Shown here: positions 2,860 to 64,000 of the stretch, piece by piece
Position numbering within the stretch: the stretch's first letter is position 1
Layout: every line of letters begins with the position of its first letter
IMG/VR virus record: IMGVR_UViG_3300046171_000173
Location: 15,594-79,593 of that record
From: a virus
DNA: 64,000 nucleotides
Reading direction: 5' to 3' (one strand)
The notes under the pieces: model-generated
The model's input: only the letters and a program-made list of their open reading frames with translations
Database searches by the model: none
What the model was told of the DNA's origin: nothing
Made by a program: the position numbers and the translations under genes

Positions 2860-5055
2860 TTAAGCAACCATCTCAATAAACTTACTCAGAATCTTTTTAT
2901 TCATCTTCTTATTCTTAAGACTTTTCTTAAATGCACTTCTGATCTGAGACTTAGTTGCATCTTCTTGAACCTCGAACTCAGACTCATTTCCAAGTGCCGA
3001 TGCAGATATTCCAAGATATACTCTGTAACCCACATCTTCCATGATAAGAGTCCTAGTTCTTTTCCATGATTCTAGAAGTTTCTCAACTTTAGGATCGTTG
3101 TAATCATCACTATTCTGTTGAATAAAGTACTTAGCATCTCTACCTTCCATAACTCGAATACCAACAAAATTTACATTTGGCAATTCATCTGAAATGTTAC
3201 GAAGTAACATCTTAGTGTAATCATGATACTGATATCCACAGTTATATGTCTTACCAGTTTTACGATTACGAAGAACACATCCGTCATTGAAACTACCTTT
3301 ACCAAAGTAAGATTCACCCATAAGAGATCTATGAATTGTTCTATGATATTCAAGTTGATATCCTTCACCGTCAGTTAGAATTACACAGTTTACTTTCTCG
3401 ACTTTATTGTTTGCCTTGAACTGAGGAATAAGTTTATGTAAAGCCACGATTGTTTCATTCAATGGTGTTCCAGATAATGACATTCCGTAAGGTGTCACAT
3501 CTCTACCATGATAGTTTCTCATTGAATTTACAATACGAAATACATTGTATAGTTGATCATTGAGTTCTCTTGCACGAACTTTACTTGAGAAAAGATTCAT
3601 CAAAGAAAACTTACTATCAATATGTACCATATTATCTTTTGCATCATATAACTCAGGAAAATTATTGAACTCGTCAGTATTTGGAAAACATGTAGTGAAG
3701 GCATAAACTTCAAATGGGATTTGAACTTTCTTACAGAACCAAATTAGATTGTATAACTGCTTGATAGTGTCCATCATTACATTTGCCATTGAACCAGACC
3801 AATCAAGTATGAATACGAGGCCATGATTCTTACCTTCTGGAATCACAGATACCTTTTTGAATAAGTCTTCGTTGTACTTATAAGTATGTAACTTAGTTGT
3901 ATCAAGAATACCAGTACGACTTACGGTAGCACGAGCATATGCAGATGCAGACTTCTTACACTCAAACTCTTTGACAAGATAGTTGACTTCCTTTTGTGCA
4001 GACTTCTTGAACTTATTATAATCCTCTTCTGTGTCCTTTAAAAATTTGTCAAGAGAACTATCATATAAAGATCCTCTAAACATAGGGTCATATGAATTAA
4101 ATCTATCAGATTCTTTTTTTAGTTGTTCAGCAACATCAATCATCTTTTCTGCACAAAGTTCATGTATCTTTTTGTTTGAGATAATAACTTTGTCAATATC
4201 AAGATCAGGCAACTCAAGATATACATTCTCTCTGCTACCTTCGTTTGTAAGATTCTTAAGTGACTCTTCAAGACTCTCAACTGTCTCTGCAGATACTTCT
4301 TCAACACCAGTATGTCCACCTACATGATTATCAACTTTGATCTCAGTCTCTTCCTGTATTTCACCATCGTCATCTGCATCCTCATCAGATTCATCTGATT
4401 GATTCATTGGTATTTCCATACCTTCACCATCTTCATCACCATCACCATTCATTTCAATATCAAAATCCATATCAAGATCTTCTACCTTCTCCTGATCCTT
4501 TCTCTTCTCTTCTGAAAGACAGTAATCATATAATGCTTTAGCAGCCTTAAGTGCATCTTCAAATGTTTCACATAAATCAATCTTGTTTACAAAGAACATC
4601 TCATCAGAACTAAATGGAATATCATAGTAAGTACCAATCTTATAGTGTAGATTCACACGGTCAGCAAGCATCATCTCAGATATGTTTTTCTTCTTGACTT
4701 GAAAGAAATCATCATTGTGCAACTCAGTGTATCCTTTATAGAATGTCTTTGAGATACCATCATATCTTCTCTTCATCAACTTCTCAATACGAGCATCTTC
4801 AACTATGTTTACAAAACTTGGATGTACATCATATTCTTTCCACCACTCTTCATCGGGTGTATATAATGCATGACCAACCTCATGACTTACAAGCATATCA
4901 ATCACATTCTCAGATGCCTTATCCCAAAGTGGTAGAGTCAATACTCTTGTCTGTACATTGAATTGTGCAGTCTCTACTTTCTTATGCTCAACAACCAAGT
5001 CTTCTGTAGCAAGTAGTCTAGCAAGTTGTGATTTGATTTCGTGTCTGATGGTCAT
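2860..5055 (-). CDS. CobT-like vWA protein with N-terminal HExxH metallopeptidase-like domain and acidic linker
   Basis: HEVGH...NIVEDARIE; MIDAS DWSGS; GTPLNE; LTDG; adjacent to cobS. Confidence 0.85.
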   Translation of the reverse strand: MTIRHEIKSQLARLLATEDLVVEHKKVETAQFNVQTRVLTLPLWDKASENVIDMLVSHEVGHALYTPDEEWWKEYDVHPSFVNIVEDARIEKLMKRRYDGISKTFYKGYTELHNDDFFQVKKKNISEMMLADRVNLHYKIGTYYDIPFSSDEMFFVNKIDLCETFEDALKAAKALYDYCLSEEKRKDQEKVEDLDMDFDIEMNGDGDEDGEGMEIPMNQSDESDEDADDDGEIQEETEIKVDNHVGGHTGVEEVSAETVESLEESLKNLTNEGSRENVYLELPDLDIDKVIISNKKIHELCAEKMIDVAEQLKKESDRFNSYDPMFRGSLYDSSLDKFLKDTEEDYNKFKKSAQKEVNYLVKEFECKKSASAYARATVSRTGILDTTKLHTYKYNEDLFKKVSVIPEGKNHGLVFILDWSGSMANVMMDTIKQLYNLIWFCKKVQIPFEVYAFTTCFPNTDEFNNFPELYDAKDNMVHIDSKFSLMNLFSSKVRARELNDQLYNVFRIVNSMRNYHGRDVTPYGMSLSGTPLNETIVALHKLIPQFKANNKVEKVNCVILTDGEGYQLEYHRTIHRSLMGESYFGKGSFNDGCVLRNRKTGKTYNCGYQYHDYTKMLLRNISDELPNVNFVGIRVMEGRDAKYFIQQNSDDYNDPKVEKLLESWKRTRTLIMEDVGYRVYLGISASALGNESEFEVQEDATKSQIRSAFKKSLKNKKMNKKILSKFIEMVA

Positions 5056-5137
5056 GGGGTTTCTTATCTGATATACCTATAATAACAACAAAACCGCCCC
5101 CTGAGACGGTTAAGTGGACACTTTGTCAACTGTCTAT
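5056..5137 (-). promoter_or_regulatory. Early promoter cassette upstream of the vWA gene
   Basis: Imperfect palindrome 5114-5137, GC hairpin ~5092-5111, TATTAT 5079-5084, CCCC immediately before the ATG. Confidence 0.7.
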
Positions 5138-5140
5138 ATG

Positions 5141-5443
5141 TTAATCCCTTTGCCTCCAATCGTCTGATCGTTTATCATTTCGGAACCAATCTGCTATATC
5201 ATCAGCTCCACCGAAACCCTTTTTATGTTTCCTTGGATCCGAGTCTCCTATATCCAAGTACTTAAGAAAAGTTGAGTCATCATCCGTTTTTAATCTTCTT
5301 GCCGAACTTAACATTCCTCTTGCTGATGTGTTTGCCTTTGATAATTTCTCTGCCCATATCATATCTTCCAAGTTTACTTCTTGTCCTGCTGCGATTGCTT
5401 TGCAGATTCCTTCTAGTCTTAAACGGTATTGAGTGGATAGCAT
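5141..5443 (-). CDS. Conserved cyanophage hypothetical protein
   Basis: MLSTQYRLRLEGIC...DWRQRD; intact 100 aa ORF co-oriented with neighbours. Confidence 0.75.
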   Translation of the reverse strand: MLSTQYRLRLEGICKAIAAGQEVNLEDMIWAEKLSKANTSARGMLSSARRLKTDDDSTFLKYLDIGDSDPRKHKKGFGGADDIADWFRNDKRSDDWRQRD

Positions 5444-5451
5444 AGATCAGT

Positions 5452-6162
5452 TTATATGTCCAAAATATTTATTGTTGGTCTCCAACCAAGTTCTTTTAAT
5501 TTCGTGATATCCGCACATGTAGTGTCTCTTTCACCCGGAGTTTCCTCTTTTATGGGTAAATATCCCATACCCATCTTAGTTGCAAGATCAATAACTGCTA
5601 CAGGATTAGCAGTTCCTACATCTAGTACTCCAGTATAATCATTTTCTGCAAGAAGTGCAATTGCAGATACAATATCCTTGACATGTATCCAATCTCTCTT
5701 ATGTCTTGTGAGATATGTAGCAGTCTTGTCCTCTAGCATCCGATATAACATATCTGGACGACTTACCTTTTCTGCATACACATTAAAGAATCTCATGCCT
5801 ACACTATTTGGTGGTGCTTGGATTTCATTTACTTTCTTTGTAATACCATATGCATTGATCCACCATTCATATACAGATGCAGAACTTGCATATAAACATC
5901 TTACATTATTCTTCCTACAATACTCAAATATAGGAATTGATTTGGTAACATTGTTTTCCCAAAATGCGTCAGGATTTTCAATGGCCTCACGAATTGCAGC
6001 ATTCGCTGCAAGGTGTACCACCAAATCATATTTCTTATCTGTTTTAAAATCACCAAGATCATGTGGAATATCATAACCATCAACCTGATGTCCTTGTTGT
6101 ATAAAATATTCATACACATGACTTCCAATAAAACCAAGATGTCCAGTAACTAAGATCTTCAT
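5452..6162 (-). CDS. NAD-dependent nucleotide-sugar epimerase/dehydratase (extended SDR)
   Basis: TGHLGFIG, HLAA, YASSASVY, YGITK (YxxxK), RFFNVY, RDWIHV. Confidence 0.9.
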   Translation of the reverse strand: MKILVTGHLGFIGSHVYEYFIQQGHQVDGYDIPHDLGDFKTDKKYDLVVHLAANAAIREAIENPDAFWENNVTKSIPIFEYCRKNNVRCLYASSASVYEWWINAYGITKKVNEIQAPPNSVGMRFFNVYAEKVSRPDMLYRMLEDKTATYLTRHKRDWIHVKDIVSAIALLAENDYTGVLDVGTANPVAVIDLATKMGMGYLPIKEETPGERDTTCADITKLKELGWRPTINILDI

Positions 6163-7871
6163 GTAATCCTCCGACTAAATCCACGAACTTTATCAAACTT
6201 CATAAGATTATCAAACTTATCATGTAAGTCTGACTTATGAGATATAACAAATATATTAGCATCTTTAATGATGAATCGAATAATCTTCATAAATTCATCA
6301 ACACCAAATCCATCAAGAGAACTATCAAATACCTCATCCATAATTAATAGATTAGTATTTACAGAGTTCTTAACTCTTGCTACCTCTCTCCATGTAAATA
6401 AAAGTGCTAAGTCAATTCTCATCTTCTCACCTTCACTAAATGAAGCATAAGAAAAATCTTCATGTATTGGTGACTCTACCGTTTCATTAAACTCTTCGTC
6501 CAACTTAAAGTTGATATAGAAATCCATCATCTGCAGATAACGATTAACCTGCTGATTGATAAGCGGTAGATATTTTCGTATTATCTTAGTCTTGACTCCA
6601 TCATCTTTAAGTAAGGAATATGCAAAGTCGTGATGAACTATATCCTGATTTCTTTCAGAAAGTTTTTCATCAGTTGTCTTGAGACTAGTCTTAAACTCTT
6701 CTAACTTCTCATGCTCAGTATTTCTGTTTTTAAACTGCTCGGTAATCGTTTGAATTTCTGATTCAAGTTCTCTAATCTGTTTTTGGTTGATAGAGATGTG
6801 AGTATTGTTTTTAGAAATGCCATTATTGAGTTTAGAAATCTCCTTTGTTAGTTTGACAAACTGACGCTCTTTTTCTTTTTCTTCTTCGATTGTTTTCTCT
6901 AAGTCTTCAAAACCTTTCTTAAGTTTCTTAGCCTCAGATTGAGCATCTTCAATCTTATTTAAGCGAAAGTCTTCTTCTATATGCTGTGTACAGGTAGGAC
7001 AAACCGTATTCTCTTTGAAAAACTTATGTTCTTTGGTAATGGTAGATACCTTATTTGATATCTGTCCTTTAAAATTGTTCAGTTTGGACAGTTTCTTGTC
7101 AGCACCTACAAACTTTTCTTGACTCTTAGTAAGATCAGTAACTTGATTTTCTAAGTCACTATTGACCAAAACATAATTATCTGATTCAGATATTAAAGTG
7201 TCTATCTTCCTTTTATTTGAGTTGATGCTGTTTTTACTTTGATTTTCAAGTTCTTTAATAAACTTATCTTGCATTTTAATTTTATCATCTAAGTTCTCTT
7301 TCTTTAAACTTAATGATCTAACCTGTTCTTTTTGTATTCTTAGTTTATCTTTCAGTAAATTATTCATAAAAGAAAAGATACGAATATCAAGCAGATCTTC
7401 AATGACATCACGACGAACTGAACTTGACAGTTGCATAAAAGGCACAAAGGTACTACTTCCGAGTATGACTATCTGTGTAAATGATCTATAATTTACTTTG
7501 AGTATATTATCTTCTAATATTTTTTGATTTGATCGATCGTCAGCCTGTCGATGTAAAGGTTCTCCATTGACTTCAATATCAAATATATTTGGTTTGATGC
7601 CTCTTCGGACTACATATTCTCTTGCGTTTACATCAAACTCTAGTTCAACTAAGCAATCTCTTTCATTGACTGTGTTAAGTAATTGTAATTTATTAATCTT
7701 ACGAAATGGTTTGTTGAATAAAACAAAGGTCAGTGCATCTAACAAAGTGCTCTTTCCTGAACCATTGTGACCAATTATTAAGTTTGTATTCTTTTCAAGG
7801 AAGTCAATCTCTGTCCAGTGGTCTCCTGTTGACAGAAAGTTCTTCCATTTAATCTTCTTGAACTTTATCAT
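6159..7871 (-). CDS. gp46: Recombination endonuclease ATPase subunit (gp46, Rad50/SbcC-like)
   Basis: GHNGSGKST, CPTC zinc hook, FSEGEKMRIDL, LIMDEVFD. Confidence 0.96.
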   Translation of the reverse strand: MIKFKKIKWKNFLSTGDHWTEIDFLEKNTNLIIGHNGSGKSTLLDALTFVLFNKPFRKINKLQLLNTVNERDCLVELEFDVNAREYVVRRGIKPNIFDIEVNGEPLHRQADDRSNQKILEDNILKVNYRSFTQIVILGSSTFVPFMQLSSSVRRDVIEDLLDIRIFSFMNNLLKDKLRIQKEQVRSLSLKKENLDDKIKMQDKFIKELENQSKNSINSNKRKIDTLISESDNYVLVNSDLENQVTDLTKSQEKFVGADKKLSKLNNFKGQISNKVSTITKEHKFFKENTVCPTCTQHIEEDFRLNKIEDAQSEAKKLKKGFEDLEKTIEEEKEKERQFVKLTKEISKLNNGISKNNTHISINQKQIRELESEIQTITEQFKNRNTEHEKLEEFKTSLKTTDEKLSERNQDIVHHDFAYSLLKDDGVKTKIIRKYLPLINQQVNRYLQMMDFYINFKLDEEFNETVESPIHEDFSYASFSEGEKMRIDLALLFTWREVARVKNSVNTNLLIMDEVFDSSLDGFGVDEFMKIIRFIIKDANIFVISHKSDLHDKFDNLMKFDKVRGFSRRIT

Positions 7872-8133: not shown

Positions 8134-9167
8134 TATTCTACCTCGCAGGCTTGTCTGTACAGATCACGAAAAATGTTTTTTACAATTCCTTTGTCAAACT
8201 CAATCTCAGATTCATCAATATAACGGTTTAAAATTGAAATTGTATTTTCATCTTCTTCAATATCGAAGTCTTGATTTTCAATAATTGCAAAGTTTTCAAC
8301 AATTTTTAAATCATGAACTCCTGAACGATATAACTTATCGATAAATTTTTGGAATTCTTTTGGATCTGATTTCTTACGAACAATAACTTTTACAATTTTA
8401 TTTTGATATTCAGTTGTATTAAACAACTTATGATTAGTATCTTCATAATATACATTATAAAACAATTTATAAGGATTGTTAATTGGAGTATGTTCTAAAG
8501 TATCAGTATCAAACAATGTAAACCCTCTAGGATCATTTACATCATTCCAAAACATCTCATATGGATTACCTAGATAATGTATTTTACCGTCACTCGAACG
8601 AGTATGAAAGTGTCCTGAAAATACATCGTCAAACTTATCAAAGACCTTAACATCCATACCATCTTCCATCATATGACCGCGAGTTGCCTTAAATCCATTT
8701 AACTCAAGATGTCCCATTGCAATCTTAGATTTGGAATTTTGAATTGCTTCAAGACTTTCATCATGATTATCAACACTTATCCAAGGTAAAAGAAGAATAT
8801 TTAATCCATCAATATTAATATCAGTTGCCTTTGAATATGTTGTTATGTTATCATAATCAGTTAATAATAACTCAGGTGAATTTATTTCGTTTGTATTTTT
8901 GTAGTAACAGTCATGGTTTCCAGTGATTGCATGAACCTTATATTTCTTCATTGGTTCAAATACAACTCTCTTGGCCCACTCTAGACTATAGTAATCAATC
9001 GACTTTCGACTATCAAATACATCACCCATATGGATAATAGTATCAATTCCTTCTGCTTCCAACGAGGGGAAAAATACATTCTTGTAAAATAATTCAAAAT
9101 AGTCATGTAAAAGTTTTGATCCCTTACGAGCACCGTAATGAGTATCTGTTATAATAGCAACTCTCAT
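8133..9167 (-). CDS. gp47: Recombination endonuclease nuclease subunit (gp47, Mre11/SbcD-like)
   Basis: DTH, GDVFD, GNHD, GHFH metallophosphoesterase motifs. Confidence 0.96.
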   Translation of the reverse strand: MRVAIITDTHYGARKGSKLLHDYFELFYKNVFFPSLEAEGIDTIIHMGDVFDSRKSIDYYSLEWAKRVVFEPMKKYKVHAITGNHDCYYKNTNEINSPELLLTDYDNITTYSKATDINIDGLNILLLPWISVDNHDESLEAIQNSKSKIAMGHLELNGFKATRGHMMEDGMDVKVFDKFDDVFSGHFHTRSSDGKIHYLGNPYEMFWNDVNDPRGFTLFDTDTLEHTPINNPYKLFYNVYYEDTNHKLFNTTEYQNKIVKVIVRKKSDPKEFQKFIDKLYRSGVHDLKIVENFAIIENQDFDIEEDENTISILNRYIDESEIEFDKGIVKNIFRDLYRQACEVE

Positions 9168-9640
9168 CTATTTTTCTTCTGTGCAATATTGTCCTTAATT
9201 GTATTATACTCAGACATTGCTCCTGTCAATGCTCCATCTTCAACTGTCATGACTTCATCAAATCCAGTCTTTTCAATAATCTTATTCTTAATATCTAATT
9301 GCTTCTTCTCCTTCTGTATGCGTCTTAGAAAGGCATAATGAATAATCTGTGTAAAGTATGCAAAAGGATTGCGAGACTTCTCTGGATCGAAATTATGAAT
9401 GTATTGTACACAGTTCTCAATACCATCAGATATCATATCATCACGAAACATGTAGTTTACAAAGTTTGGTTTATATGACAGGTGTGTTGCGATCTTTAGA
9501 AAACAGGATCCAAGGTAATTGGTAATTCTAGGCTTCGGTAGATCTTTCTCTTTTGCAATAGCAACTTTCTCTCGATAGACTATCAATGCCTCTAAGAGTT
9601 CTTTGTTATTTACATAGTGTTCAGACTTCTTTCTAGGCAT
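9164..9640 (-). CDS. gp55: Late transcription sigma factor
   Basis: HYVNNKEL...NPFAYFTQIIHYAFLRRIQKEKKQ. Confidence 0.96.
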   Translation of the reverse strand: MPRKKSEHYVNNKELLEALIVYREKVAIAKEKDLPKPRITNYLGSCFLKIATHLSYKPNFVNYMFRDDMISDGIENCVQYIHNFDPEKSRNPFAYFTQIIHYAFLRRIQKEKKQLDIKNKIIEKTGFDEVMTVEDGALTGAMSEYNTIKDNIAQKKNR

Positions 9641-9667
9641 GACATCTTAATTGTCTTAACTATATTC

Positions 9668-14470: not shown

Positions 14471-14569
14471 TACCTGACCTCTGATGACTACTTTCCTACC
14501 CATAACAAAAGGGGTTTTTAGTGCATTGTTCTCTCCGCAATGACAAAATTATTTATGCAAATTAGGTCT

Positions 14570-14583
14570 GTATTCACTGATAC
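14570..14583. promoter_or_regulatory. NtcA-type binding site GTA-N8-TAC
   Basis: GTATTCACTGATAC in the intergenic region upstream of the Cys-rich ORF. Confidence 0.55.
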
Positions 14584-60556: not shown

Positions 60557-60735
60557 TAAGAACTTTCTTCTAATGTTGTAACTAAATCTTTCGTGTTTTC
60601 CGTAACACATGAGTAGGTTATCTCTTCTTTCCAATAAGAAGTATAAAGTTTATTCCATATAATATCAAACTCGTGTTGATCTAAATTTTTAAATAGACAC
60701 TTATCGTTTAAGTAGATGTGGTAGGTATTACACAT
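60553..60735 (-). CDS. Hypothetical protein
   Basis: YHIYLNDKCLFKNL; coupled ORF. Confidence 0.6.
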   Translation of the reverse strand: MCNTYHIYLNDKCLFKNLDQHEFDIIWNKLYTSYWKEEITYSCVTENTKDLVTTLEESSY

Positions 60736-61373: not shown

Positions 61374-61537
61374 CGAATGAAATCTTATAGTCGTTTTTAT
61401 ATAGCGAAAAAAAATTTTAGAGTTCGTGTAATTTATGTCTCGCTTTCGTAACACTTTGTAGACTAGGGGTGTCACGCATTTTCATATCAGGGGGCATCAA
61501 CCCCCCGATCGCTGCCACTGCACGAACGAACGAATGG

Positions 61538-62482
61538 CTACCCCCGTGCCATTCGACTGTGATTAAAATTTATATGGGCTGAACACCTCTCTGTTTATTA
61601 ACTTATAAGTTCCAAACCCATTATCAAAGACATACCCCTCATGCTCTGCTTCGTCACCTTGAAAGTAAACTTCTATGCTGTGGTCATGTCTGCACTGATA
61701 TAAGCACTCTTCTTTCATGAACTTAACCAGTAAGCCATAAGACGGATCAGGTTTATATCACATACCTCTGCGAACAGTTCCGGGCTCAATCTCCAACCCC
61801 TCACGAATACAACTGTTAAACATTTTTTTAATCTCTGCTGCTTCCTTCTCTGTTACAAACTCAACGGATGCTGCGATCTGTCGGGCAAACTCTACACGGT
61901 TTCCTAACTGGAACATAGTGTTTTTTTGCTCCAACTGGTTATAAGTAGCCTGTGTATATGTACGCATTCGGTTGAACGAAGCGACAGCCATCGGTTGACT
62001 TCAACTCACCCTTATTGATTGGCAACCCGTAAGCATCCTTTAAGACCCGTCTTCACCAATTCATAACGAGTATGTGGAGCCACGATGATGTCCTCCTGTA
62101 TATGCTTCGGGAACATATAGGTTAATGTATTGGGTGTATATTCCCTCTCACCACCGAAACCGATAAAATCACCCTGATAGATGTATTTTGTATCAGGTAG
62201 GTTATCTAAACAGAAAATTAGGATCTGCGCAAGCATTGGGACAGCATGATAAAACTTTCAATGTCTGCGTGATTCTCACATATGATAGGTCTTTTCTTAT
62301 TAAAAACGGACTTGGTACCCACGAACTGGTGGCCGGTCTTTGGATTGCGTCCCCATACAACAGCGGGAGCTCCATCAATTTTAACGGATAAACGACCCTG
62401 GTGATTGAAACCAGCCGAAGATATCCAGATCACCCGTGAGGATTGTGTCCTCTGGGTGTTCGATGTGCTTAATGTTTGTCAT
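61538..62482 (-). CDS. DUF6267-like protein with ligase/nucleotidyltransferase-like motifs (heavily frameshifted)
   Basis: KHIEHPED start; SVKIDGAPAVVWG, FVGTKSVFNK, YQGDF, HEGYV and YKLINR in successive frames. Confidence 0.65.
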
Positions 62483-62718
62483 TATGCGTACCTCCCTGCT
62501 GGATGTGGGTTAGATGGTGTGCAACCGAAAGAGGCGAAGAACGCATCCATCTGCTCAAGGTTTAAATCTGGATCATCAAAATCAACCTTTGCGATTGATT
62601 GGACTCCCCACTCTGCAACCTCATCTATAAAGGTGTCGAAGTCTTCACATACATAAGCAACATTTTCAAAGTTGCCTACTTCCTTGATTCTGTTGATAAG
62701 TCTTTCTGTTTTTGTCAT
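62482..62718 (-). CDS. Small early hypothetical protein
   Basis: Downstream of a promoter cassette; TAATG-coupled to the next gene. Confidence 0.65.
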   Translation of the reverse strand: MTKTERLINRIKEVGNFENVAYVCEDFDTFIDEVAEWGVQSIAKVDFDDPDLNLEQMDAFFASFGCTPSNPHPAGRYA

Positions 62719-62805
62719 TTGGGGGAAATTCGTTTGTATACTAATATTATAAAGGATGAAAGGGGCATTTGTAAGTACCCCTTGTGCCAGTTTGTTAACT
62801 GTCTA
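62719..62805 (-). promoter_or_regulatory. Early promoter cassette
   Basis: Palindrome 62784-62805, hairpin 62760-62783, TATAAT 62746-62751, C5 tract 62721-62725. Confidence 0.8.
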
Positions 62806-63010
62806 AATGTGCTTCCACTAACTGTGAGATGTCGTTTAATACATCTAAGTAAAGATAATTTGCGGATTTTAATAGATCCACTCCATCACACATTGGATAG
62901 TTTCCGCTGTCTTCTGCTTCTGCAACGACTTCTGCCACGCATGCTTTCATTAATCCTTCATTAGTCAATTCGTAGTTTGTAGGATCGATGTAAGTAAAAA
63001 ATCTGTTCAT
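62795..63010 (-). CDS. Small early hypothetical protein (MNRFFTYIDP...)
   Basis: ATG at 63010 lies downstream of TATAAT and the C-tract. Confidence 0.6.
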   Translation of the reverse strand: MNRFFTYIDPTNYELTNEGLMKACVAEVVAEAEDSGNYPMCDGVDLLKSANYLYLDVLNDISQLVEAHLDS

Positions 63011-63085
63011 AATCAATGGGGGTTTGTTTATACTACTATTATAGGAACAGATGCCCACGACTGCGAGCACCTGTAACAAAACTTA
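63011..63085 (-). promoter_or_regulatory. Early promoter cassette (variant upstream box)
   Basis: TTAAGTTTTGTTACA box, hairpin 63048-63073, TATAAT 63038-63043, C5 tract 63018-63022. Confidence 0.7.
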
Positions 63086-63541
63086 ATTGGGTAAGTAACC
63101 GGCTACTTCCATACCCGGCTCATCATAAAACCAACTGATTCCAACATCTGGATAGTCTTCGCGGATTTTGTCAAAGATTCCAGATGCAGGGGCCCATGCG
63201 GTTTGAAACTCAAACTCTGCGTAACTTTCGTCCACTTCCGCACCAACTAAGTTGATATCCCACTTAGTTCCCCAGTTATTAATACACCAGTGATACCAGC
63301 GATCGTCGTTTTTGTCATCTGGGAAATCATAGGTAATTGTAATAATTTCGCCTTTGTCGTTTTTCATTTCCCTTTTTACTGGAAGTTCGCCTTTATCGTT
63401 TGGAATTGTTTTCCAGTCTGGTTGAGGATAGATTTCGTTAAAAGGTCTTTCAACTTGAAATTTAGCCACAAGTTTCTGAAACTGGGAATCATCTTCAGTG
63501 TTGGATGAGATTGTAACTCTGTTAGTGCACCAATTTGGCAT
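63083..63541 (-). CDS. YubB/Api92-type ferredoxin-like-fold early protein
   Basis: MPNWCTN, WYHWCINNWGTKWD, FQTAWAP, YDEPGM..AG. Confidence 0.75.
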   Translation of the reverse strand: MPNWCTNRVTISSNTEDDSQFQKLVAKFQVERPFNEIYPQPDWKTIPNDKGELPVKREMKNDKGEIITITYDFPDDKNDDRWYHWCINNWGTKWDINLVGAEVDESYAEFEFQTAWAPASGIFDKIREDYPDVGISWFYDEPGMEVAGYLPN

Positions 63542-63627
63542 AATCTTAATGGGGGTTGTTATACTTTATTATAATAGAAAATCCCCCAAAAAACTGGGGA
63601 TCAATGTGACAGTAATTAAACTGTCAT
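63542..63627 (-). promoter_or_regulatory. Early promoter cassette
   Basis: Palindrome 63606-63627, hairpin 63581-63601, TATAAT 63568-63573, C5 tract 63551-63555. Confidence 0.8.
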
Positions 63628-63951
63628 ACCTGAGACGAAAGGAACCACTTGACCTGTTAGTCTGTCAGATACGAACCACTCCCAGTTCTTTTGAAAAATA
63701 CCCATGCTCGGAACGAACTCATCTAAAAGTGCGTTAAGTCTGGATTTTGTGGTCACGGACTGCCACCCACCATCTTTGATAGTGAGTTTGTGGGTTGCTG
63801 TATCTAAAGATGCAATGTGGTTTCCATGTAGGAAAACATCAACATCAGTTGTAACACCATTTGTCTTGAAGCATTTTACCATAGTGTTTTGCTTTGACAT
63901 GTTGCGTCTGTAACGGATCGCTGTGTTCATGTCTCTTTCAATTTTGCGCAT
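63616..63951 (-). CDS. Conserved early hypothetical protein
   Basis: MRKIE..M, VFLHGNHIA, DGGWQSVTTKSRLNALL, FQKNWEWF. Confidence 0.75.
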   Translation of the reverse strand: MRKIERDMNTAIRYRRNMSKQNTMVKCFKTNGVTTDVDVFLHGNHIASLDTATHKLTIKDGGWQSVTTKSRLNALLDEFVPSMGIFQKNWEWFVSDRLTGQVVPFVSGMTV

Positions 63952-64000
63952 AACTTAAGGGGGTGATTGTTTGCTTACTCCTATTATAACCGATAGGAAA

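Follow-up and report, generated by a model that had tools for sequence, protein, structure and literature searches.

A run of four or five cytosines stands shortly before the start codons of a set of early genes in a fragment of a T4-like cyanomyovirus, and comparison with related loci indicates that this C-run genuinely belongs to the translation initiation region. The C-run is tied to start codons and not to the promoter cassette. It is a variation on known early-gene cassettes and on known start regions that lack a Shine-Dalgarno (SD) sequence.

Origin of the DNA and distribution of the early region

The analyzed stretch, referred to below as the window, covers the final 64 kb of a linear virus contig of 79.6 kb with a completeness of about 41% (CheckV). 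All genes of the contig are on the minus strand, and its GC content is about 35%. The DNA of the contig is similar to that of T4-like cyanomyoviruses only, with the best matches to the single-cell virus AG-345-L05 (75%) and to the P-SSM2/P-SSM5 group (about 71%); judged by these matches, the contig is a fragment of a T4-like cyanomyovirus. Searches for Rfam families and tRNAs found none. Neither a phage-encoded bS21 nor an S1-domain protein was found on the contig, which represents about 41% of a genome. The part of the contig ahead of the window (contig positions 1–15593, L120) carries genes for a split glycine-cleavage P-protein pair (GDC-P, 538 bits) and for a DruA-like-domain protein, together with regA, hsp20, and denV; the coordinates for this set are 5298–7750, 8522–9661, and 4192–4632.

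The early region is present in seawater metagenomes and metatranscriptomes from 14 studies, and the clade that bears the C5 tag is uncultured and common in the ocean. Contigs from RNA libraries differ from the virus contig by single-base indels at positions 61780, 61945, 62045, 62049, 62055, 62255, and 62395 (window 61700–62400). Therefore, the frameshifts in a ligase-like early gene may be assembly errors or strain differences. The relatives used for comparison are IMG/VR loci fetched around orthologues of five genes, and much of this sampling is phylogenetically non-independent.

C-runs in the leaders of early genes

The whole contig was scanned for runs of at least four cytosines on its coding (minus) strand. 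Such runs are rare, with 33 occurrences, and four of the five C5 runs are located in the leaders of the genes starting at window positions 63951, 63541, 63010, and 62718. The C5 at 63959–63963 ends 7 nt before the ATG at 63951 of a gene of the Kyano_Gp96 family (63616–63951; TATAAT at 63983–63988) and is kept in the orthologue leaders L081–L099. The C5 at 63551–63555 is positioned 9 nt before the ATG at 63541 of a gene for a 152-residue protein (63083–63541; TATAAT at 63568–63573), which has a clade of orthologues with C5. The other two C5 tags are at 63018–63022, 7 nt before the ATG at 63010 of a 71-aa gene (62795–63010; TATAAT at 63038–63043), and at 62721–62725, 2 nt before the ATG at 62718 of a 78-aa gene (62482–62718; TATAAT at 62746–62751).

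The remaining runs are of four cytosines. One, at 2774–2777, precedes by 6 nt the ATG at 2767 of a 101-aa gene (TATAAT at 2796–2801). Another, at 5056–5059, directly abuts the ATG at 5055 (gap of 0 nt) of a 731-aa gene, which was called the vWA gene in an earlier note and has no Pfam match; the -10-like box of this gene is TATTAT (5079–5084). The evidence here is weaker than for the four C5 tags, and the C4 is not conserved, since orthologues alternate between CCCC, CCTC, CCACC, and ACCA. A seventh run, at 14511–14514, is separated by 7 nt from the ATG at 14503; a late-type ATAAATA box and a mini-ORF (ATG CAC TAA) are located upstream of it. All seven runs are on the minus strand.

The initial annotation had described C-runs 0–9 nt before the ATG of six cassette-driven genes and a further AACCCC before the ATG at 14503, and all seven are where it placed them. 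Its count of six out of six depends on the definition of a cassette: the runs are present, but two TATAAT-proximal early-region genes, with ATGs at 60735 and 60505, have none. In many of the relatives shown, the ATG corresponding to 14503 opens a mini-ORF of a few codons. C-runs of at least four nucleotides that end 0–12 nt before an ATG occur at 6 of 113 ORF-genes (7 with the gene at the contig edge), whereas 5000 shuffles of the upstream regions gave 0.6 such genes on average and never more than 4. For C5, three cases were seen against 0.08 in the shuffled regions. A chance origin is unlikely, as had been argued from the AT-rich composition, with the reservation that the cassettes are related repeats and the six C-runs are therefore not six independent events.

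None of the seven C-run leaders contains GGAG, GAGG, or AGGA at SD spacing (in the six cassette leaders, within 16 nt of the ATG), and the AGGAG in the leader of the gene at 63951 adjoins the TATAAT box, 25 nt from the ATG. The reported absence of a purine SD at normal spacing from these six leaders is correct, and so is the reported use of GGAGG or AGGAGG by non-cassette genes, which we found at the late-promoter genes 58533 and 15162. The tract itself is not an SD site: CCCCC is not the purine complement of the CCUCC tail of 16S rRNA.

Similarity to promoter-early stem-loop cassettes

A terminator-like C4/G5 hairpin (63583–63599) precedes the TATAAT box of the 152-aa gene, and a G4/C4 hairpin (62762–62781) that of the 78-aa gene. 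Stem-loops also precede the boxes at 63038, 5079, and 2796, and they are kept in orthologue cassettes. Five of the cassettes have the exact -10 sequence TATAAT. They contain no TTGACA-like -35 element at a distance of 17 nt because the hairpin occupies that position. To our knowledge, promoters of Prochlorococcus generally lack a -35 box.

The stem-loop, host-type early promoter, short leader, and start codon form a composite unit like that of the promoter-early stem-loop (PeSL) cassettes of T4-type phages (Arbiol et al. 2010, PMC2839356; Comeau et al. 2014, PMC4122927). As with PeSLs, the unit is repeated before small genes without an assigned function in a plastic early region, the gene content of which varies among relatives; different sets of genes are found between the cassettes in loci L502, L504, and L511. 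Published PeSLs end in an SD sequence, whereas here a C5 (C4–5) run takes its place. In cyanophage S-PM2, a report on a deletion saw no PeSL density comparable to that of other T4-like phages (PMC4503421). In one RNA-library contig, the hairpins of two cassettes are directly joined (62757 to 63596), skipping 838 nt and with 15 other letters between them. The short side of the joint is 29 nt, and it is a weak candidate for a natural deletion variant that arose at the cassettes.

The likeness to PeSLs raises an alternative explanation, which we consider unlikely, that the C-run has no specific function and is the legacy of a leader module carried through one clade by PeSL-like mobile cassettes. 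The run would persist since any unstructured leader free of G would work in a host that rarely uses SD sequences. The cassettes match the architecture of PeSLs, which mediate modular shuffling (PMC2839356, PMC4122927). The direct joint of two cassettes in the RNA-library contig, the variable gene content of the three loci, and the lack of conservation of the C4 at 5056 are consistent with such a spread. The tag is also found mostly in one clade, and sister lineages do well on AU/UC-rich or SD leaders. Nevertheless, runs of five cytosines are hardly ever seen at other places in these AT-rich genomes, and the explanation has to be weighed against the position of the run relative to the start codon.

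Spacing to the start codon

Among 39 distinct TATAAT leaders of the relatives, the distance from the end of the C-run to the ATG is 7–8 nt in 25 (s.d. 2.2), whereas the distance from the TATAAT box to the run ranges from 4 to 26 nt (s.d. 3.9). The same peak appears when all loci are considered: the next ATG follows 7–8 nt downstream of 83 of the 630 runs of at least four cytosines, compared with about 10 or fewer in most other distance bins, and of 39 of the 178 runs of at least five, compared with about 4 or fewer. Neither G-runs nor A-runs have a peak in their distance to the ATG at these loci. Fourteen of the 53 distinct C5–7 modules precede ORFs without a -10 box, and nine of the fourteen hold a spacing of 7–9 nt. 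The module of C4–5, seven or eight nucleotides, and ATG is also conserved behind the late promoter of the 14503 locus.

The C5 run recurs before at least ten unrelated families of small early genes in the IMG/VR relatives, and locus L504 contains eight C5 runs, positioned 3–10 nt from ORF starts, within about 2.5 kb. The mean pairwise identity of the flanks of the run is 0.39–0.41, which is the background level, except for the A directly before it (86%). The leaders are A-rich and nearly free of G, and they are essentially unfolded, with a mean minimum free energy of -1.65 kcal/mol over 43 nt (z = +0.3) and a probability of 0.91 that the C-run is unpaired.

The fixed distance to the ATG with or without a TATAAT box, together with the variable distance to the TATAAT, favors an element acting at the level of translation over a part of the promoter. 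The spacing, the modules without promoters, the drifting flanks, and the unfolded leaders place the constraint at the start codon, and they argue against simple block copying. An inherited module without function does not readily explain why the run was kept while both flanks drifted to background identity, or why its spacing to the ATG was held in at least ten gene families, even without the promoter part of the cassette. A signal at the level of transcription, with the run clamping the early elongation complex as an rC:dG hybrid or causing a promoter-proximal pause, is highly improbable. The run is located at about +5 to +20 from the presumed transcription start in cassette leaders, after an A/U-rich stretch, but its distance to the -10 box varies by more than 20 nt while that to the ATG is fixed, and the same spacing is found on genes without a nearby -10 box and behind the late promoter. 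Both the inherited module and the transcriptional role fit the spacing data less well than SD-independent ribosome loading, the reading that we prefer.

Other arrangements were considered for the leaders. A hairpin displaying the C5 in its loop is ruled out by the lack of folding. Termination-reinitiation, with a stop codon just before the run, found no support among the C5–7 modules. The mRNAs would not be leaderless, as the -10 box ends 25–32 nt before the ATG, with the start sites assumed from the TATAAT.

Start signals of the host

In samples of 400 kb from each of two Prochlorococcus genomes, taken as candidate hosts, runs of at least four cytosines precede 0.3–0.6% of ORFs, which is equal to the frequency in shuffled sequences. 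An SD core precedes only 7–9% of the ORFs, and pyrimidine runs are mildly enriched upstream of them. The combination of promoter cassette and C-run occurs at the control level in four host genomes. Leaders of host psbA genes contain neither an SD sequence nor C4 and end in CGUCCUC or CGAACUC. The shuffle-level frequency at host ORFs and the psbA leaders rule out that the C-run copies a strong start signal of the host. C-tracts are also absent from late genes of the phage; the initial annotation had suggested a comparison with late and host genes, and the counterevidence that it named, equally common tracts before such genes, was not seen.

The 16S rRNA of Prochlorococcus ends in ...GGAUCACCUCCU and has no G-run in its last approximately 45 nt. 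Pairing of the C-run with the 3′ tail of 16S rRNA is therefore excluded; the initial annotation had proposed looking for a complementary GGGG(UU) in the host 16S rRNA. The remaining runs of four or five G in the 16S rRNA are presumably in paired regions, as judged from the helices of E. coli. C signals upstream of non-SD genes have been described in Cyanobacteria (Nakagawa et al. 2017, PMC5397173).

Distribution of the tag among orthologues and cyanophages

Within a contig, the tag tends to be all-or-none. A tree of the 152-aa gene places the C-tag leaders together in a single well-supported clade (9 of 13 rows), some rows of which have changed over to GGAG or a U/C-rich tract in that position. 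Orthologues from sister lineages likewise have GGAG or a U/C-rich tract in place of the C-run. Looser versions, such as CCC-UUU-CCC, C4-U4, or AGGAG followed by C5–6, occur in other lineages.

None of the TATAAT-proximal leaders of P-SSM2, P-HM1, Syn9, and AG-345-L05 contains a run of at least four cytosines (0%), and the combination of promoter and C-run is present in these viruses at the control level only, which rules out a general feature of cyanomyoviruses. From the available sequences, the C5 tag appears to be private to one uncultured clade of T4-like cyanomyoviruses. The class-specific signal put forward by the initial annotation thus stands in so far as the tag is non-random, limited to one class of genes, and linked to start codons; its attachment to the promoter cassette does not, and the tag marks one clade rather than the early genes of cyanophages at large.

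Proposed mechanism of ribosome loading

We tentatively favor a mechanism in which the C-run helps the 30S subunits of the host to load onto early mRNAs without SD pairing. If transcription starts about 7 nt after the TATAAT, the early leaders would be very short, comprising about 20–25 nt of RNA. Such a leader would expose a single-stranded A-CCCCC 7–9 nt upstream of the AUG, in the place of an SD sequence, and the run may serve as a pyrimidine-tract docking or standby site for 30S subunits. The contact would most plausibly be made by ribosomal protein S1 or by the platform; the candidacy of S1 derives from the general properties of this protein and of pyrimidine tracts. The mechanism is favored because the spacing is fixed as in SD sequences, the run is single-stranded, it is exchanged for SD sequences in orthologues, and the host seldom uses SD. 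That the run promotes initiation, and through which contact, is what we infer from these sequence features.

Several observations speak against ribosome loading. C4–5 runs are at the shuffle level in the host, where some use would be expected if its ribosomes favored them, and the cultured cyanomyoviruses that infect the same genera lack the tag. We know of no C-rich tracts that act as translational enhancers in model bacteria. The leaders described here share with S1-type non-SD initiation (Boni et al. 1991, PMC333546; PMC5397173) an unstructured, G-poor leader with a single-stranded pyrimidine tract, and a host with infrequent use of SD. Known S1 sites consist mainly of U or of A and U and vary in their placement, whereas the tag is a pure C5 at a fixed distance of 7–9 nt. 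The tag also differs from S1-type initiation in that it is not a feature of host genes and is confined to one phage clade.

Possible recognition of the tag by a phage factor

The all-or-none distribution of the tag among genomes, as expected if the sites co-evolve with a phage factor, fits a phage-encoded reader as well as it does the ribosome. The C5 tag might accordingly be an operator, or a shared address label on early mRNAs, through which a trans-acting factor of the phage represses or stabilizes the whole class. This is the main alternative to ribosome loading, and we regard it as rather unlikely. Candidate readers are the RegA homologue of the contig and an RNA with a G5 loop, which would correspond to two of the mechanisms offered by the initial annotation, a translational repressor and a G-rich RNA, beside ribosome recruitment and a nuclease.

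The regA gene was identified by a match to PF01818 (G000:C1:4225–4587, 153.8 bits). T4 RegA represses early mRNAs at their start regions. The tag would resemble RegA operators in a class-wide control of early mRNAs at the start region; the presence of the homologue and the AUU-AUG context are further parallels. On the contig, 44% of early starts have (A)UU-AUG, compared with 7% of other genes. In the contig, P-HM1, and AG-345-L05, TT or ATT directly precedes the ATG in 33–44% of TATAAT-proximal genes and in 7–14% of other genes; the preference does not hold in P-SSM2, Syn9, or the hosts. However, T4 RegA prefers U-rich RNA, the T4 sites are AU-rich without a C-run, RegA is common in cyanomyoviruses generally, including those without the tag, and its binding to the tag is putative.

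The candidate partner RNA is a hairpin at 61531–61555 (minus strand), about 10 nt after the stop codon of the ORF at 61563–61718; its G5 loop is closed by a stem of 8 bp (CGAATGGC/GCCATTCG). It is present in all ten tag-bearing contigs that cover the region and absent from contigs without C5 tags at 7–9 nt from the ATG, and it is conserved in 17 contigs, all from the C5-tag clade. The G5 is invariant, whereas the flanks of the loop vary, and two variants of the stem maintain pairing through G-U pairs, in the sense strand only. A second, different hairpin with a G5 loop is located upstream of the tag cluster in loci L504 and L511. In these two loci (L504:540–840 and L511:1100–1400), beyond the end of the contig, there is a repeat-rich non-coding stretch with CTCGAC and ATGTGCAT repeats and a 10–12-bp hairpin with the loop UGGGGG.

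We consider it very unlikely that the C5 is a private address tag on 8–10 or more early mRNAs that would be read by the GGGGG-exposing hairpin at 61531–61555. The co-occurrence of hairpin and tag is inseparable from shared ancestry, and the 17 contigs belong to one clade that offers neither loop variation nor covariation. The complementarity of the G5 loop and the C5 spans only 5–6 bp, and lineages with C4 or C5–6 leaders (L515, L517, and L523) lack the hairpin. Contigs from RNA libraries run across the hairpin, which is therefore not obviously a separate small RNA, and a collection-wide scan for the G5 hairpin added only chance matches in unrelated phages. The arrangement resembles that of RsaE/RoxS-type small RNAs in that many mRNAs could be reached through one tag that they share at the ribosome site, by pairing with a short, homopolymer-like loop. 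The polarity is the opposite: the C-rich loop of RsaE/RoxS-type RNAs pairs with a G-rich site, whereas here a G5 loop would pair with a C5 tag. If such recognition took place, one short loop-to-tag pairing at the site of ribosome loading would turn all genes of a temporal class off or on together.

Other conserved leaders in the window

The C5 at 61490–61494 was rejected as a sequestered start signal: in relatives, a TTATATAAAA box comes after a conserved G6/C5 hairpin, and translation actually starts at an (A/G)TG about 15 nt further downstream. The surrounding region (61470–61530, minus strand) is a strongly conserved non-coding block upstream of a 91-aa gene, found in more than 50 cyanomyovirus contigs (L443–L499). 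It consists of a TTCGTTCGTG box, CAGCAGT, a G5–7/C5–7 hairpin, and the TTATATAAAA box, followed about 4–5 nt on by (A/G)TG. From this order, the block looks like a promoter that would produce a leaderless or nearly leaderless mRNA.

The region at 14500–14580 (minus strand; L324–L345, and near position 2360 in P-HM1) is a conserved late-promoter leader with two mini-ORFs before a start of ATG CAC AAT. The first mini-ORF is ATG CAC TAA, with its own GGAG; it is followed by C4–5, seven or eight nucleotides, and the ATG that opens the second, few-codon mini-ORF. In this contig, the second ATG (14503) happens to share the reading frame of the gene; the start of the conserved protein is the following ATG-CAC, as seen in many of the relatives shown. 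At 5079–5135, the upstream unit of the 731-aa gene, present in all relatives' loci examined (L242–L321), contains a palindromic box of the GACAGTTGACAAAGTGTC type, a GC hairpin with a T-run, a -10 box, and an SD-less leader of about 22 nt.

Implications for translation initiation

We found no description of a C-run start signal in cyanophages in the searchable literature, probably because none of the viruses of the clade that carries it is in culture. Much of the picocyanobacterial population of the ocean is turned over by marine cyanophages. How start codons are chosen without an SD sequence is still an open question for cyanobacteria and several other phyla. The C-run points to what may be an undescribed signal for starting or controlling protein synthesis. 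A pure C5 at SD spacing, swapped with SD sequences in orthologues, offers a clean natural system for the study of SD-independent initiation or of translational control across a class of genes.
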